A DNA stretch of 64,000 nucleotides, from contig NZ_OZ241836.1 of assembly GCF_965202595.1 (NCBI RefSeq), positions 215,095 to 279,094 of the forward strand, read 5' to 3'. Under the pieces are notes generated by a model. That model was not told where the DNA came from. It saw only the letters and a program-made list of their open reading frames with translations, and made no database searches. This DNA is from Candidatus Poriferisocius sp. (GTDB lineage: Bacteria > Actinomycetota > Acidimicrobiia > Acidimicrobiales > Bin134). Position 1 is the first letter of the stretch. Every line of letters begins with the position of its first letter. This document shows positions 39,841-50,371 of this stretch, in pieces. The position numbers and the translations under genes were made by a program.

Positions 39841-41063
39841 ACGTCGCCCCGGCGCTTTTGGGTCCGACCGTGTTCGGCCTCGACCCGCTCTACATCGGGG
39901 GGGTGGGCCTGGCCGAGGTTCTCATCACCCTGCTCAAGGTGGGGGTGGCTTTTGCTCTTCTGCTGATGGCGGTCATGCTGATGATCTGGTTCGAACGCAA
40001 GTTGATCGGCGACATGCAGAACCGTATCGGGCCTGCGCTGGCCGGGCCGTTCGGCATCTTCCAGACCCTGGCCGACGGGATCAAGCTGTTCTTCAAGGAG
40101 GACCTGATCCCCGACCGCTCCGACCGGTTGGTGTTCAAGCTGGCCCCCTACCTGTCGCTGGTGCCTGCCTTTTTGGTGTTCGCCGTGATCCCCGTGGGCG
40201 GCGATTTCAGCGGTGGCAACGGGCGGGTCAGCCTGTTCGGTCACGAGACCTTCCTCCAGGTGTCCGACCCGCCGGTGGGCATCCTGCTGGTGCTGGCCAT
40301 GTCGTCGGTGGCCGTTTACGGGGTGATGCTGGCCGGGTGGTCGTCGGGCTCCAAGTATCCCCTGCTGGCGTCGGTGCGGGCCTCGGCCCAGATGGTTTCC
40401 TACGAGGCCGCACTGGGTTTGTCGCTGGCCGCGGTGCTGCTGAAATCGGGCAGCCTGTCCACCCACCTGATCGTTTCCGAGCAGTCGGTGTGGAACTGGA
40501 ACCTGTGGGTTACATGGGTGGTGCCCATGGTCGTCTTCTTGATCGCTGCCACCGCCGAACTGAACCGGCCCCCCTTCGACCTGGTGGAGGCCGAGCAGGA
40601 GCTGGTCGGCGGCTTCCACACCGAGTACAGCTCCATCCGGTTCGCCCTGTTCTACCTGGCCGAGTTCATGAACACCATCACGATGTCGGCCATCGTGGTG
40701 ACCCTGTTCCTGGGCGGGCCCAACGGTCCCGACTTCACCTCGGTGGGCTGGCTGTCGGGGTTGCTGTGGTTCTTGGGCAAGCTGCTGATCCTGCTGTTCA
40801 CCTTTGTGTGGTTGCGGGCCACCCTGCCCCGCTTCCGCTACGACCAGCTCATGGACCTGGGTTGGAAATTGCTCATCCCCCTGTCGCTGGGGTGGCTGCT
40901 GGTGCTGGCCTCCTACGACGTGGCCGGGGATCGGGGCTGGAACCGCTTCGCCACCGTGCTGGCGGTGATGGCGGTGATGGCCGCTCTGGCCGGGTTGTTG
41001 AGCCTGGCCCTGCGAAATGCCCGCCGCCACCGGGAGTTGGATCCCCAAGGTGGTTTTGCCTGA
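39837..41063 (+). CDS. nuoH: NADH-quinone oxidoreductase subunit H
   Basis: WFERKLIGDMQNRIGP and EAEQELVGGFHTEYS motifs. Confidence 0.95.
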   Translation: MNVAPALLGPTVFGLDPLYIGGVGLAEVLITLLKVGVAFALLLMAVMLMIWFERKLIGDMQNRIGPALAGPFGIFQTLADGIKLFFKEDLIPDRSDRLVFKLAPYLSLVPAFLVFAVIPVGGDFSGGNGRVSLFGHETFLQVSDPPVGILLVLAMSSVAVYGVMLAGWSSGSKYPLLASVRASAQMVSYEAALGLSLAAVLLKSGSLSTHLIVSEQSVWNWNLWVTWVVPMVVFLIAATAELNRPPFDLVEAEQELVGGFHTEYSSIRFALFYLAEFMNTITMSAIVVTLFLGGPNGPDFTSVGWLSGLLWFLGKLLILLFTFVWLRATLPRFRYDQLMDLGWKLLIPLSLGWLLVLASYDVAGDRGWNRFATVLAVMAVMAALAGLLSLALRNARRHRELDPQGGFA

Positions 41064-41130
41064 TGGGATACCTTGAGTTCACCCGATGGTGGCTGGATCC
41101 CCAAGGTGGTTTTGCCTGATGGGATACCTT
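41039..41130 (+). repeat. 56-bp duplication of the nuoH/nuoI junction with an 18-codon bridging mini-ORF
   Basis: ggatccccaaggtggttttgcctgatgggatacctt at 41039 and 41095. Mini-ORF 41063-41119 (MGYLEFTRWWLDPQGGFA*). TGATG overlaps at both ends. Confidence 0.9.
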
Positions 41131-41775
41131 CAGGGCTTTGCCGTCACCCTTCGCAAGTTGTTCAAGGGCACCGAGACCGGTCGGGTGGTCACCAGCCAGT
41201 ACCCCGACGAGAAGCGTCCCAAACCCGAGCGCTTCCACGGCCGCCACGTGCTGAACCGCTACGAGGACGGCATGGAGAAGTGCATCGGGTGCGAGCTGTG
41301 CGCCGGGGTCTGCCCGGCCCGGTGCATTTATGTTCGGGGGGCCGACAACCAGCCCGATGATCCGGTTTCGCCCGGCGAGCGATACGGCTATGTCTACGAG
41401 ATCAACTACCTGCGGTGCATCCACTGCGACCTGTGCGTGGAGGCCTGCCCCACCGAGGCCATAACCGAGTCGAAACTGTTCGAGTTCTCGTTCACCGACC
41501 GGGCCGATGCCATCTACACCAAGGACGAGCTGGTGGTGGATGACGATGGCCGCCCCCAGCAGCTTCCCTGGGAACACTGGAATCCCGGTGACGATCAGCA
41601 CACCTCGGCCTGGGTCCGGGCCACATCCCCCTCGGGGCGGGCCGACTACGAGGGTCGGGTGGCCTGGTCGGGCGAGCTGGGCTACGGCATCCGCGCCCCC
41701 GAGCGGGGTCAGTCGGCCGGCGACGAGTCCCCCGCCGATTATGACCAGGAAGATCTTGGCGGGGGTCACCACTGA
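41119..41775 (+). CDS. nuoI: NADH-quinone oxidoreductase subunit I
   Basis: CIGCELCAGVCP and CIHCDLCVEACP motifs. The start is at the second junction copy (MGYLQGFAVTLRK). Confidence 0.95.
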   Translation: MGYLQGFAVTLRKLFKGTETGRVVTSQYPDEKRPKPERFHGRHVLNRYEDGMEKCIGCELCAGVCPARCIYVRGADNQPDDPVSPGERYGYVYEINYLRCIHCDLCVEACPTEAITESKLFEFSFTDRADAIYTKDELVVDDDGRPQQLPWEHWNPGDDQHTSAWVRATSPSGRADYEGRVAWSGELGYGIRAPERGQSAGDESPADYDQEDLGGGHH

Positions 41776-41818
41776 TGGAGACAGCGGTTCGCAAAGCCCA
41801 TGGCGGGGGTCACCACTG

Positions 41819-41826
<8 letters not shown>
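41758..41826 (+). repeat. 44-bp duplication of the nuoI/nuoJ junction with a 14-codon bridging mini-ORF
   Basis: ggcgggggtcaccactgatggagac at 41758 and 41802. Mini-ORF 41775-41819 (METAVRKAHGGGHH*). Confidence 0.9.
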
Positions 41827-42356
<530 letters not shown>

Positions 42357-42370
<14 letters not shown>

Positions 42371-42461: not shown

Positions 42462-42743
42462 CTGGTGCTGGCTGGCGCGCTGTTCACCATCGGGGCGGTG
42501 GGCCTGCTGGTGCGGCGGAACCCGCTGATCATGTTCATGTGCGTGGAGCTGATGCTCAACGCGGTCAACCTCACCTTCATCACCTTCGGGCGGGAGCTGA
42601 ATGACATCGGGGGGCAGGTGTCGGTGTTCTTCGTGCTGGTGGTGGCCGCGGCCGAGGTGGTGGTGGGTCTGGCCATCGTGGTGGCCATCAAGCGCCACCA
42701 ACCCCGGGCCACCGCCGACGACCTTGCGGCCCTGAAGGGTTAG
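42441..42743 (+). CDS. nuoK: NADH-quinone oxidoreductase subunit K
   Basis: 100 aa: LVLAGALFTIGAVGLLVRRNPLIMFMCVELMLNAVNL. Confidence 0.95.
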   Translation: MVTASWYLVLAGALFTIGAVGLLVRRNPLIMFMCVELMLNAVNLTFITFGRELNDIGGQVSVFFVLVVAAAEVVVGLAIVVAIKRHQPRATADDLAALKG

Positions 42744-42843
42744 TGGGTACATGAGCATGCTCGTGGATGCTGAAGGGTTAGTGGGTACATGAGCACCCTC
42801 GTGGATGCTGAAGGGTTAGTGGGTACATGAGCACGCTCGTGGA
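42732..42843 (+). repeat. 38-bp tandem repeat x3 of the nuoK/nuoL junction with two chained 13-codon mini-ORFs
   Basis: ctgaagggttagtgggtacatgagca..ctcgtggat at 42732, 42770 and 42808. Mini-ORFs 42751-42792 (MSMLVDAEGLVGT*) and 42789-42830 (MSTLVDAEGLVGT*), ATGA-chained to the nuoL ATG at 42827. Confidence 0.9.
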
Positions 42844-44722
42844 TCTGGTGTGGCTGATCCCCGCCTTCCCGCTGGCCGGGGTTCTGATCCTCGTGGTTTC
42901 GGGGCGCAGGCTGGGCGAACCCCGGGCCGGCTGGCTGGCCACCGCCATGATGGGCGGATCGTTCGTGACCACGCTGCTGGTGTTCATCGGGCTCCTGGGC
43001 CACGACGGTGAGGAGCGTCAAAAGGTGCTCACCCTGTTCGAGTGGGTACCCGCGGGGCGGCTGGCGGTGGACATCGGCTTTCTGGCCGACCCGCTGGCCA
43101 TCACCATGGCCTTGTTCGTGACCGGGGTCGGAGCTCTCATCCACCTTTACTCCATCGGCTACATGCACGGCGACGAGGGGTTCTCCCGGTTCTTCGTGTA
43201 CCTCAACCTGTTCGCCTTCTCCATGCTCATGCTGGTGCTGGGCGACAACCTCCTGCTCACCTTCCTGGGCTGGGAGGGGGTGGGGGCCTGCTCCTACCTG
43301 CTCATCTCGTTCTGGTTCACCGACGAAACCAACGCCACCGCGGGCAAGAAGGCGTTCGTCACCAACCGGGTGGGCGACTGGGGCTTCTTGGTGGCCATGT
43401 TCCTGGCGTTCTTGACCTTCGGGTCGCTCCAGTACGGCGAGATCTTCTACGACCTGGAGTCCAACGGGGTGGCCGCTGGCACCGCGTCGGCCATCGTGGT
43501 GCTGCTGCTGGTGGGCGCGGCCGGCAAATCAGCCCAGTTCCCGCTGCACATCTGGCTGCCCGATGCCATGGCCGGCCCCACCCCGGTGTCGGCGCTCATT
43601 CACGCCGCCACCATGGTCACCGCCGGGGTTTACCTGCTGATCCGCATGAACCCGATCATTGCCGAGGCCCACGGGTGGGTGCCCGACCTGATCATGTGGT
43701 TGGGTCTGGGGACCGCGCTGATGGCCGCCACCATCGCGGTGGCCCAGAACGACATCAAGAAGGTGCTGGCCTACTCCACGGTCAGCCAGCTCGGGTTCAT
43801 GTTCGTGGCGGTGGGGTCGGGGGCCTACGTGGCCGCCATCTTCCACATGGTAACCCACGCCTTTTTCAAGGCCCTCCTGTTCCTGGGGGCCGGGTCGGTG
43901 ATCCACGCCATGCACGGCGATCAGGATCTTCGCCGCTACGGCGGTCTGGCCCGATTTCTGCCCGTTACCTCGATGACCTTCGTGGCCGGCTGGCTGGCCA
44001 TTGCCGGCGTTCCCCCGTTCTCCGGTTTCTGGTCCAAGGACGAGATCCTGGTTTACGCCTATGGCGAGAACAAGCTGCTGTGGCTGCTGCTGCTGGTGAC
44101 CGCGGTGCTCACCGCCTTCTACATGACCCGGCTGGTGCTCATGACGTTCTTCGGCCCCCGCCGCTGGGCGGGCGAAGCAGCCGATCCCCACGAGTCGCCG
44201 TGGACGATGACCGCTCCCCTGGTGGTTCTGGCCGCCCTGGCCGTGGTGGCCGGGGTGGTGAACCTGCCGTTTGCCTCCAGCACCCACTTCTTGGGGAACT
44301 GGCTGGATCCGGCCTTTTTCGGCAATGCCTCTCACCTGAGCCTCGGCGGGGGCACCAAATGGGTGCTGGCCGCCGTTGCCATCGTGGGCAGCCTTCTGGG
44401 AGTCTCGGCCGGGGCCGCGGTGTACGCCCGGCGCCGGGTGGATCCGGCTCGCCTCGAGCACCCCTTCCTGGCCCGGGCCTGGCGCATCGATGAGCTGGTC
44501 ACCGCCTTCATGGGTGGTCCCGGCCGCCGGGCGTTCGAGCGCACCACCCGGTTTGATGAGCAGGTGGTGGACGGCGCGGTCAACGCCACCGGCGCTTTGA
44601 TCCGCCGGGCCGGAACCAAACTGCGGGTGTCGCAAACCGGCCTGGTGCGCAGTTACGCCCTGGGTATCGCCGCCGGGGCAGTGGCACTTTTGGCCTGGTT
44701 CCTGTCGCGGGCGGGGTTGTGA
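42827..44722 (+). CDS. nuoL: NADH-quinone oxidoreductase subunit L
   Basis: 631 aa, with antiporter-like motifs (WEGVGACSYLLISFW, KSAQFPLHIWLPDAMAGPTPVSALIHAATMVTAG). Confidence 0.95.
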   Translation: MSTLVDLVWLIPAFPLAGVLILVVSGRRLGEPRAGWLATAMMGGSFVTTLLVFIGLLGHDGEERQKVLTLFEWVPAGRLAVDIGFLADPLAITMALFVTGVGALIHLYSIGYMHGDEGFSRFFVYLNLFAFSMLMLVLGDNLLLTFLGWEGVGACSYLLISFWFTDETNATAGKKAFVTNRVGDWGFLVAMFLAFLTFGSLQYGEIFYDLESNGVAAGTASAIVVLLLVGAAGKSAQFPLHIWLPDAMAGPTPVSALIHAATMVTAGVYLLIRMNPIIAEAHGWVPDLIMWLGLGTALMAATIAVAQNDIKKVLAYSTVSQLGFMFVAVGSGAYVAAIFHMVTHAFFKALLFLGAGSVIHAMHGDQDLRRYGGLARFLPVTSMTFVAGWLAIAGVPPFSGFWSKDEILVYAYGENKLLWLLLLVTAVLTAFYMTRLVLMTFFGPRRWAGEAADPHESPWTMTAPLVVLAALAVVAGVVNLPFASSTHFLGNWLDPAFFGNASHLSLGGGTKWVLAAVAIVGSLLGVSAGAAVYARRRVDPARLEHPFLARAWRIDELVTAFMGGPGRRAFERTTRFDEQVVDGAVNATGALIRRAGTKLRVSQTGLVRSYALGIAAGAVALLAWFLSRAGL

Positions 44723-47881: not shown

Positions 47882-50371
47882 TTGACAACTTCAACACTGT
47901 TATAAAATTTGAAAAATACACTGTTCAAGTAAGTGACTTCTTCTGAAATACTGTCACAATTTTTTCAAATTACTACTGTAGTTGAGTTTACCAATATAGG
48001 ACTCCATGAAATCCCAATCCGGTAATCCGGGTTTTATTACAGGCAAAGGTATCCGTGATCGTTCCAAGCGGGCTTTCACAAGGGCATATCCGTAGTTGTA
48101 GGTGCCCTTGTGAGCGAAATCCATCACAGTCACTAGAAAGATGCCAATACCTGCGCTCATTCTCTCGTGCCTGATAATGTTTACCTTGTTACCCTTCAAG
48201 AACTCATCTGGCTGATAGAAGGCCACTACTCCCTCTGCTCCTATCGTTATACAGTTCCCCTCATAGGATGTGTCATGCCTACCGAAGCCGTCCACCCCGT
48301 TGTTAGACGCGGTACGCGTGATGTACGGCAGGCTGCCTTCAATAAGCTCTCTCTTATCGGTGTAAGGTCCAAGGGTAACAGCGAACGTTTCTCCGATATT
48401 GAAATACTCCCATTCCCTGTCAGTGAGCCGAAGATCAGATTCAGATATGGGTTGTGAATGTACGGCGTTAAGCTTACCCTGAGAAAACATAGCTCCTGTG
48501 AGTAATCTCAAAGAATACTGGAAGTCTTCCTGTGTCAACTGCCGGTAATCTCGCGTAATACAGGCCTCTGCGCACCACTCATCAGCTGGGTTAAGCTCTC
48601 TCATTTCACTGAAATATGGGACTTCATCTCTGTTGAGGAAATGCCTTACCCACTGATCTCGAATGGAAGGCCACTTGTTGTCCGGATCTACTCGACCCTT
48701 GTGCATCTCCACCACATAGCCGTCATCTTTGGCAAGTGCCAGCCAGACTTTTTTACCTTTTGGATGTGGGCGATGGGCTATAATCACCATGACGCAGGTA
48801 ACAGCGCTAGCTTTGGAGTTAAAAAACAGTTGATTTGGCATGGACAACACTGCTTCCAGCGTGTGTTTTTTCATCAACTTTGACTTGAAGTTGATGATCT
48901 TGTCACTTGTGGATAGAGCTGACTGCATGGGAATGATGGCAATACAGATGCCTCCATCACCTAAAATATCAAGGTTATTGAGTACAAACTCCCACTCTTC
49001 TTTGTCGTGTCTTTTGTTCGATTTATATGGAGGGTTGAGCATTCCTACAGTGGGCCGTTTAATTTTCATTCTTGCAATAATATCGGTATCGAAACAACTT
49101 GCTTGCTCTATATTGGATTTGCCATCTTGATGTATAAACATGTTGGAGACAGCCAGTGGAAAAATGTCAGCCTGTAGTTCAACTCCGAAAAGCTGGCTGT
49201 TCTTTATACGGGTTTCTAGTTCTTCCGATCCCTTAGCATCTGTAATCATACGTTTCATAGCGCTGATCAGGAATCCCCCAGTACCTGCACAATTATCGTA
49301 GACTATGGAGGACTTATTCACCTGGGCTAGATCTGCAAATAACTCGGTTATATGCGGTGGTGTAAGAACTATACCCAGGCCCTTATCCTTGTTGGCATAT
49401 CTCAGGAACTCAACGTACAGTTCGCCTAGGACATCCCGGTATTCATGGTTTTTGATGAAGGAGTTTATTTCGCTATCTATCTGCTGTACTAACTCTCTCA
49501 GTTCCCCATCCTTTTGAATCAAAGCTGTCTCGTGTTCAATGAATGAGAACTTCTGTTCCAGCAATCTAAGTTTTTCCTCATCCAAGTCGGCCTTCAACTC
49601 TGCTAGGACTCGTTTCTGAATATCCTTTGCCAATTCTACCGAGTCGTTTTCCGCGCCATATGATCTTTTGAAGGACGGATTCTCCAAAGCTATTAGTATA
49701 GCACTTATCAAGAGTGCTCTGTTGCTTTCAGCGACTTTGTTTCTATGTAAACGCTCATTCAATATACGAAGAAAACTCTTCAAAGAATCGTAGTCTTGCC
49801 TGTACTTATCAGGATTATTGTAGTAGCCCCGAATATAATCTGACGGAGAAAGCAAAGTTTCATCAAATATTGGAGTCGGGCACGCAACTCCTTTGAGGTG
49901 TAGAAAATGGGAAATTCTGGCATCTGTGTGAGTTTCTCCACTGATACCTATACAAATCACGTCGAATTCTTTTGATAGGTAAGACGAGTAATGCATGGCA
50001 CCATCAACCGCAAATTCGATGGGACGGTCCCGGTCAGGACTCTCATGTTTGTTCCGGTCAGCCTTGCACTCGATCACGATTAAAAGATCGGGTTCGTCTT
50101 TCAAAGTAACCAGGAACTCGGGATAACCTCGTCCTGCCCCTCCTTTCGATGCCGATGCCAGCAGTTTTTCGATTCGGCGGTGCTTGGATTTTTGCTCTTC
50201 CACTTCTACCTGGTCGGCGTACTGCCTGAAGTGGGATCGAACTATTTCCTCTGTGTTTCTCTCGTTAGGCACTGTTCGTTACTGGCTTCCTTGAGAGCGG
50301 TCGACCGGAGCACTCCATTTCACTTTCTCCATGAGCACATAGTACAGGTGGTGCGTGACAATTTGTGTGAT
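47882..50371. other. AT-rich islet 1 (about 2.5 kb), filling the space between the stop codons of convergent nuoN and the PQQ dehydrogenase gene
   Basis: An abrupt compositional switch is visible in the raw sequence at both edges. Hand counts on a few 60-nt lines give roughly 30-50% G+C, against roughly 65-70% in the flanks. No integrase or transposase is present. Confidence 0.8.
47954..50272 (-). CDS. Single-chain Type IIG-like restriction-modification enzyme (PD-ExK nuclease + gamma N6-adenine methyltransferase + HsdS-like target recognition domain)
   Basis: 772 aa. The N-terminus has PDLLIVIECK (D...ExK). The centre has VLTPPHITELFADL, DNCAGTGGFL (motif I) and MLNPPY (motif IV). The C-terminal ~270 aa show the HsdS TRD pattern ending in IPLPV. 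Confidence 0.7.
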   Translation of the reverse strand: MPNERNTEEIVRSHFRQYADQVEVEEQKSKHRRIEKLLASASKGGAGRGYPEFLVTLKDEPDLLIVIECKADRNKHESPDRDRPIEFAVDGAMHYSSYLSKEFDVICIGISGETHTDARISHFLHLKGVACPTPIFDETLLSPSDYIRGYYNNPDKYRQDYDSLKSFLRILNERLHRNKVAESNRALLISAILIALENPSFKRSYGAENDSVELAKDIQKRVLAELKADLDEEKLRLLEQKFSFIEHETALIQKDGELRELVQQIDSEINSFIKNHEYRDVLGELYVEFLRYANKDKGLGIVLTPPHITELFADLAQVNKSSIVYDNCAGTGGFLISAMKRMITDAKGSEELETRIKNSQLFGVELQADIFPLAVSNMFIHQDGKSNIEQASCFDTDIIARMKIKRPTVGMLNPPYKSNKRHDKEEWEFVLNNLDILGDGGICIAIIPMQSALSTSDKIINFKSKLMKKHTLEAVLSMPNQLFFNSKASAVTCVMVIIAHRPHPKGKKVWLALAKDDGYVVEMHKGRVDPDNKWPSIRDQWVRHFLNRDEVPYFSEMRELNPADEWCAEACITRDYRQLTQEDFQYSLRLLTGAMFSQGKLNAVHSQPISESDLRLTDREWEYFNIGETFAVTLGPYTDKRELIEGSLPYITRTASNNGVDGFGRHDTSYEGNCITIGAEGVVAFYQPDEFLKGNKVNIIRHERMSAGIGIFLVTVMDFAHKGTYNYGYALVKARLERSRIPLPVIKPGLPDWDFMESYIGKLNYSSNLKKL

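Follow-up and report, generated by a model that had tools for sequence, protein, structure and literature searches.

A 44-bp gain at the nuoI/nuoJ overlap as one of many reading-frame-filtered repeat scars, with a possible origin in off-array CRISPR integration

The 1-nt overlap between nuoI and nuoJ has gained 44 bp, which consist of a 26-34 bp copy of the junction and a filler of 10-18 bp. The first copy retains the stop codon of nuoI and the second the start codon of nuoJ, and a 14-codon mini-ORF bridges the two genes. On balance, we favour the explanation that the gain is a neutral scar that was filtered for translational coupling and probably arose by off-target Cas4/Cas1-Cas2 integration. 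The junction lies in a 64,000-nt stretch of DNA (the window, to which the positions refer unless a contig is named) from a sponge-associated, Candidatus Poriferisocius-like genome of the Acidimicrobiia (G000), which comprises 3.1 Mb in two contigs at 63% GC.

The nuoI/nuoJ junction and its counterparts in related species

The features of the junction are listed in Table 1, and their layout in the region 41700-41880 is ...GAAGATCT TGGCGGGGGTCACCACTGATGGAGAC AGCGGTTCGCAAAGCCCA TGGCGGGGGTCACCACTGATGGAGAC CGCTGTGTTCATC.... The exact repeat of 26 nt begins with TGGCGG and recurs with a period of 44. Within the window, the 25-mer GGCGGGGGTCACCACTGATGGAGAC has two exact occurrences (41758-41782 and 41802-41826), and its chance expectation there was 0 matches (100 shuffles, up to 3 mismatches). 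The first copy contains an SD-like GGGGG (41761-41765), the nuoI stop codon and a decoy ATG (41775-41777), and it can be extended to 41755-41788 if 3 mismatches are allowed. The second copy carries the true nuoJ start and its native upstream context, including a GGGGG at 41805-41809. In each copy, the GGGGG precedes the ATG by 9 nt and is a plausible Shine-Dalgarno element.

Table 1. Features of the nuoI/nuoJ junction (window positions)
Feature	Position	Strand	Basis or remark
nuoI, NADH dehydrogenase subunit I, 218 aa	41119..41775	+	Pfam Fer4 and Fer4_7; gene call; congeners 85-94% identical
R1, first (original) junction copy TGGCGGGGGTCACCACTGATGGAGAC	41757..41782	+	exact 26-nt repeat
14-codon bridging mini-ORF, METAVRKAHGGGHH and stop	41775..41819	+	translation
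S, filler between the copies, AGCGGTTCGCAAAGCCCA, 18 nt	41783..41800	+	strict reading, M=26, S=18
R2, second junction copy	41801..41826	+	exact 26-nt repeat; single junction of the relatives, ...GGGGGCCACCACTGATGGAGACCGC..., aligns here
nuoJ, NADH dehydrogenase subunit J, 183 aa (METAVFIV...)	41819..42370	+	Pfam Oxidored_q3, E 2.5e-39; tblastn to 19 congeners from residue 1

The extent of the duplication depends on how the copies are read. The strict reading gives copies of 26 nt and a filler of 18 nt, and the generous one gives copies of 34 nt, identical at 31/34 positions, and a filler of 10 nt (41789-41798, TCGCAAAGCC). When the full 44-nt units were compared (41750-41793 with 41794-41837), 36/44 positions were identical (0.82), and all 8 mismatches fell outside the 26-nt core. 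The 10-18 nt between the copies displayed no clear homology to either flank, a weak match at most. A search for a source of the filler elsewhere in the genome gave nothing significant; a 13-nt match to a ligA-like gene was at chance level (approximately 1 expected). Since non-homologous filler separates the copies, the locus was not reported by TRF. An earlier note on this DNA had described a 44-bp unit. This description holds for the period but overstates the homology, and the gain is better described as a junction copy of 26-34 nt with a filler of 10-18 nt.

NuoI ends in ...DQEDLGGGHH, and its authentic stop codon is the TGA at 41773-41775. The mini-ORF begins with the ATG at 41775-41777, which has one base in common with this TGA, and it ends with the TGA at 41817-41819, the last base of which is the first base of the nuoJ ATG (41819-41821). 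TGATG is thus present at both ends of the mini-ORF (41773-41777 and 41817-41821), in each case as a -1 stop/start overlap between co-oriented ORFs, and the chain-following script returned (14, 183) at this locus. Translation bore out the earlier view that the mini-ORF is chimeric, with an N-terminus like that of NuoJ and a C-terminus like that of NuoI, and the stop/start overlaps are intact at both ends. The placement of the nuoJ start at 41819, instead of the start of the long ORF from 41507, was likewise upheld: NuoJ begins with METAVFIV at a TGATG overlap in all 19 congeners, the Oxidored_q3 domain spans residues 16-166 of the 183 aa, and the gene caller based on codon usage picks 41819.

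The junction was compared with that of other members of the genus. It was single-copy in 19/19 same-genus species (80-84% identical over the stretch), with the sequence ...CAT GGG GGC CAC CAC TGATGGAGACCGCGGTCTTC..., and the 44 extra bases therefore constitute a lineage-specific insertion, which arose after this lineage and that of the sister species G008 had separated. Deleting S and R2 restores the ancestral colinear arrangement, and no target bases have been lost. Across the 4-kb nuoH-nuoL region of the 19 relatives, no exact repeats of at least 16 nt within 130 nt were found except for a duplication in the NuoI tail of G008.

Because 44 is 2 mod 3, the mini-ORF follows the nuoI frame through the duplicated nuoI tail and ends on the TGA that overlaps the nuoJ ATG. 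The phase statistics given below suggest that ribosomes leaving nuoI would start again at the decoy and, after 14 codons and termination, once more at nuoJ, and the 14-codon peptide would then be a functionless by-product whose phase, and not its sequence, matters. The intact start, the SD-like element and the precise stop/start overlaps could also be expected of a selected regulatory leader or micro-protein that controls the expression of nuoJ-N. The sequence, however, is merely a NuoJ head, a filler and a NuoI tail, and approximately 66 similar chains exist at unrelated junctions. The mini-ORF was absent in 19/19 congeners and the peptide is not conserved; a regulatory leader peptide was rejected on these grounds, and we find such a role scarcely credible.

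The anatomy of the junction also bears on another alternative, an ordinary 44-bp tandem duplication produced by replication slippage or unequal recombination, the edges of which later diverged. Such a duplication would have passed the same survival filter without any CRISPR involvement, and the identity of its centre would be due to chance, gene conversion or selection acting on the stop/start context. Consistent with this, the period is constant, the positions outside the core match at 11/19 as compared with approximately 30% expected, and the ancestral GCGGT and CAT of the relatives survive in copy 1 and copy 2, respectively. On the other hand, 0 mismatches in the 26 positions of the core against 8/18 between the cores is a very uneven distribution for simple decay.

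Neighbouring junctions and the genome-wide phase rule

The nuoI/nuoJ event is one of six nuo junction events, whose periods are 50, 56, 44, 71, 38 and 71, all of them 2 mod 3. Its repeat-filler-repeat build is common to neighbouring nuo junctions: the copy and the filler measured 37 and 19 nt at nuoH/I, 34 and 37 nt at nuoJ/K, and 39 and 32 nt at nuoL/M, and two upstream junctions had copies of 36 and 34 nt with fillers of 38 and 32 nt, respectively. TRF detected none of these nuo junction repeats. Unlike its neighbours, the nuoK/nuoL junction (42732-42845) is a pure tandem array of three 38-nt units with no insert, and it is absent from G008.

Some further variation was seen in this region. 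At the nuoH/nuoI junction (41038-41133), G000 and G008 have undergone separate events, with periods of 56 and 65, respectively; the copies in G008 have diverged and their insert is unlike that of G000. In G017, nuoH and nuoI are separated by a non-overlapping spacer of approximately 57 nt, which probably also reflects an event, and a single TGATGGG was present in the remaining relatives in which the motif search located the junction (5/17). As separate events have taken place at nuoH/nuoI in different species, the junctions are recurrent survivors. The C-terminal tail of NuoI (41640-41775) is hypervariable, acidic and His-rich in the genus and differs in length in almost every species; the duplication in the G008 tail is in frame and 54 nt long. 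The minus-strand gene after nuoN (47954-50272) has a low codon-usage score, which fits a foreign AT-rich restriction-modification islet.

We scanned the whole G000 genome with our own scripts for exact seeds of at least 18 nt at a distance of 20-150 nt. The scan yielded 959 short-range repeat clusters, or approximately 320 per Mb, which we refer to as scars. Their periods are sharply bounded at 30 and 75 and peak at 33/36, 66 and 71-73. Inside genes, the numbers of scars with periods of 0, 1 and 2 mod 3 were 237, 2 and 3, respectively (n=242). At same-strand overlapping junctions the corresponding numbers were 15, 13 and 57 (n=85), and for clusters containing only a stop codon they were 84, 71 and 109. 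The results showed that 57/85 junction events fall into the 2-mod-3 class (p 4e-10 in a binomial test and p 4e-5 in a Fisher test against the clusters with only a stop codon), and the period classes obviously show selection. In 55/57 of these 2-mod-3 junction events, an unbroken stop/start chain leads to the downstream gene.

These classes differ in what they do to an ATGA or TGATG overlap. Only a period of 2 mod 3 keeps the decoy in the frame of the upstream gene through the duplicated tail and lets it terminate at the true start. If the period at an overlapping junction were 0 mod 3, the protein would be extended, and if it were 1 mod 3, ribosomes would cross the true start out of frame. The bias of 57/85 towards 2 mod 3 lends indirect support to the prediction that the translation of nuoJ depends on that of nuoI. 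The insertion at nuoI/nuoJ would then persist because it is almost neutral, and comparable events that lie within genes or have another phase would be purged.

The repeat could conceivably also be an error of the long-read metagenome assembly, in which a local segment was falsely duplicated, and a second assembly of the locus with which to compare it was not found: there were 0 matches when metagenome contigs were scanned for the exact pattern and when NuoJ and NuoK were looked up as exact proteins. The scar class, however, obeys reading frames, both inside genes (237/2/3) and at junctions (2 mod 3), which assembly errors would not do. Moreover, the two copies at nuoI/nuoJ differ in their flanks, and the independently assembled G008 gives the same period spectrum. 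An assembly artefact is thus very unlikely.

Scar geometry and the CRISPR array

The two ends of the period range differ in build. Units with an identity of at least 0.9 mostly have periods of 30-39, and those with an identity below 0.75 have periods of 61-75. Within the 71-73 class, 110/123 scars are duplications with a median length of 36 nt (IQR 32-37) around an unrelated insert of approximately 36 nt. None of the 123 clusters was a plain two-copy tandem with a matched length equal to the period, and the class therefore represents a repeat-insert-repeat structure, not tandem duplication. Genome-wide, the duplicated segment has its mode at 36-37 nt and the insert at 35-36 nt. A separate class of approximately 400 events, with periods of 30-39, is purely tandem and free of inserts. 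The period peaks, 33/36 on one side and 66/71-73 on the other, are bimodal with an apparent 1:2 relation, of which the peak at 66 is unaccounted for by the origin proposed below.

G000 possesses a type I-G CRISPR-Cas system with Cas2, a Cas4-Cas1 fusion (E 2.6e-89), Cas3, GSU0054 and GSU0053. Cas2 and Cas4-Cas1 adjoin an array with an AT-rich leader, an arrangement that speaks for an adaptation module active in acquisition. The array has 75 identical repeats of 36 nt, and its spacers are of 36 nt (32), 37 nt (25), 35 nt (7), 38 nt (7) and 39 nt (3), corresponding to periods of 71-75. If a chance extension of approximately 1 nt is allowed for, the ectopic units have the geometry of the array, including the upper limit of 75.

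The inserts themselves were unrelated to their flanks and had no inverted local copies, and there were 0 mutual matches among the inserts of 242 units. They were not prone to form hairpins (MFE -7.2, as compared with -6.8 for shuffles). A near-full-length source elsewhere in the chromosome was found for 4/188 inserts, and comparison of the inserts with the array spacers gave no matches outside the array itself. Logos of 75 clean repeat-insert-repeat units revealed no motif at the integration boundary (information content at most 0.17 bit), and no PAM could be derived. The real array spacers show no terminal-base bias, so such a bias is uninformative for the inserts.

Two observations concern a low-GC (36-41%) island at C1:2844000-2852000 and its surroundings. 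Spacer 16 of the array is self-targeting, as it matches C1:2849915-2849951 at 37/37 positions. The insert of an ectopic unit (36+34+36, C1:2209083-2209188) is a 33/34 copy of C1:2855001-2855034, located 5 kb from the protospacer of spacer 16. An insert copied from such a distance is what primed acquisition would give, with n=1.

The sizes of the scars point to the cell's own adaptation integrase. Its staggered cuts, made approximately one repeat length apart, would duplicate the target, and a full-length spacer, a short one or none would be put between the copies. On this circumstantial evidence, we rate an off-array origin from the type I-G Cas4/Cas1-Cas2 integrase as slightly the better bet for the scar class as a whole. 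For the nuoI/nuoJ locus taken by itself, the same origin falls a little short of an even chance. The duplication there has an exact copy of 26 nt, or 31/34 to 31/36 identical positions with mismatches, as compared with the 36-nt host repeat, and the insert of 10-18 nt is shorter than the array spacers of 35-39 nt. Since the exact copy is shorter than 36 nt and the filler is below spacer length, a diverged 44-nt tandem duplication is a live rival at nuoI/nuoJ. With regard to the insert-free class (period 30-39), we suggest that it could result from fill-in of the staggered cuts followed by joining; we know of no Cas1-Cas2 mechanism described for this class.

The sister species provides further evidence. 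G008 has the identical CRISPR repeat and the same scar period spectrum as G000. In its canonical array, leader-proximal spacers are only 10, 12 and 23 nt long, giving periods of 46, 48 and 59, and its duplicated segment measures approximately 36.5-37 nt for all periods between 40 and 75. The short array spacers and the constant length of the duplication link the short-insert class, including the 44-nt event at nuoI/nuoJ, to the adaptation machinery. The stretch G008:C1:2764996-2765184 (L203) contains three short-spacer units, then a 56-nt spacer with a repeat fragment and then spacers of 35-39 nt.

The same array weighs against the tandem duplication considered above, as it shows that 36-nt duplications with 10-23-nt inserts have been made in the clade. 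G000 has many pure tandem repeats in the period range 30-50, in agreement with a tandem origin, but plain two-copy tandems fade above a period of approximately 50 and are absent at 71-73, where repeat-insert-repeat units dominate. Taking these points together with the anatomy of the junction, we regard a simple tandem duplication as rather unlikely, and integration by the Cas4/Cas1-Cas2 complex as the preferred source.

The distribution of the repeat and of the scars in the genus was also compared. Among 40 genus members, large arrays of the G000 repeat occur only in G000 (75 copies) and G008 (113 copies), and G046 has 4 copies at 3 mismatches. The scar density per 100 kb was 32 in G000 and 27 in G008, as compared with 0-11 in the others (19 genomes sampled). 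As G000 and G008 are sisters, this association between the CRISPR repeat and scar density is effectively one observation. Orthologous Cas4-Cas1 is present in six sampled congeners with few or no scars (G048, G015, G010, G013, G054 and G050).

The existence of Cas4-Cas1 carriers without scars is more easily understood if an undescribed process other than Cas1-Cas2 adds approximately 36 or 72 nt, in the form of a target duplication with templated or untemplated filler, e.g. when staggered breaks are filled in and their ends joined. In that case, the agreement with the CRISPR geometry would be coincidental. Such a process would also suit the lack of a target motif, the second peak at 66, the large insert-free class and the finding that the period is more constant than the length of the repeat or the insert separately. 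It requires, however, that the repeat (36), the insert (35-37) and the upper limit of 75 all coincide with the cell's own array. It also leaves unexplained why the two genomes that share the repeat in large arrays are the richest in scars, and why there are short spacers inside the G008 array. We consider it improbable, somewhat more so than the tandem duplication. The broadest form of our preferred reading, in which the type I-G integrase of this sponge-symbiont clade acts chromosome-wide and makes on the order of a thousand repeat-length duplications, containing a full spacer, a short one or none, of which selection on the ribosome hand-over decides which persist, is put forward tentatively, as a possibility that we hold with less confidence than the integrase origin of the single locus.

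Significance and comparison with known systems

Taken alone, the nuoI/nuoJ locus is a harmless scar; together with the rest of the genome, it forms part of a natural experiment on two questions. The first concerns translation. The phase rule, with 2 mod 3 at junctions and 0 mod 3 in genes, would provide genome-scale evidence for dependence on termination-reinitiation in multi-subunit complexes such as Nuo, and it would indicate that a decoy start can be tolerated only where the frame that it opens terminates at the true start. The second concerns the mutagen, as the sizes of the scars suggest that it is the cell's own CRISPR integrase. If this origin is true, many of the mini-ORFs at operon junctions and of the in-frame insertions in proteins would in nature stem from CRISPR adaptation, as a major source of both, and potential new CRISPR arrays could come into being in the same way. 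To our knowledge, no other wild genome would then have off-array integration at a frequency sufficient to shape its genes.

Off-target spacer integration by Cas1-Cas2, which generates neo-CRISPR units, has been described (Nivala 2018, as cited in passages of PMC7054753, PMC6698737 and bioRxiv 10.1101/148544). As in those passages, the G000 units consist of a target duplication of approximately repeat length around a short insert, located off the array in a cell with an intact adaptation module, and the genome-wide class has the 36+36 geometry of the host array. The known case, as these passages present it, is that of E. coli over-producing Cas1-Cas2, the cases from the wild being circumstantial, whereas G000 carries approximately 950 natural scars. 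Unlike the off-target units, many G000 scars have short inserts or none, and the enzyme is here a putative agent; the nuoI/nuoJ event itself is a duplication of 26-34 nt with an insert of 10-18 nt.

[quoted passage not shown] They also insert with minimal impact on expression, as is predicted for nuoI/nuoJ (PMC12548453). MIRUs, however, form a dispersed family, whose members have a consensus in common and are thought to be mobile (PMC12548453), whereas the G000 units are built from local sequence. Membership of the MIRU family was rejected, as the core was found only at the nuoI/nuoJ locus in the window and the inserts share no sequence.

Coupling by termination-reinitiation at overlapping gene pairs that encode subunits of heteromeric complexes is treated in parts of PMC10666635 and PMC12548453. 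The pairs dealt with there and the nuo genes have in common the TGATG (-1) overlap between consecutive subunit genes, and such an overlap is kept at the ancestral nuoI/nuoJ junction as well as at both of the new ones. The G000 junction differs from these pairs in the interposed 14-codon ORF, presumably non-functional, owing to which ribosomes would pass from nuoI to nuoJ in two re-initiation steps instead of one.
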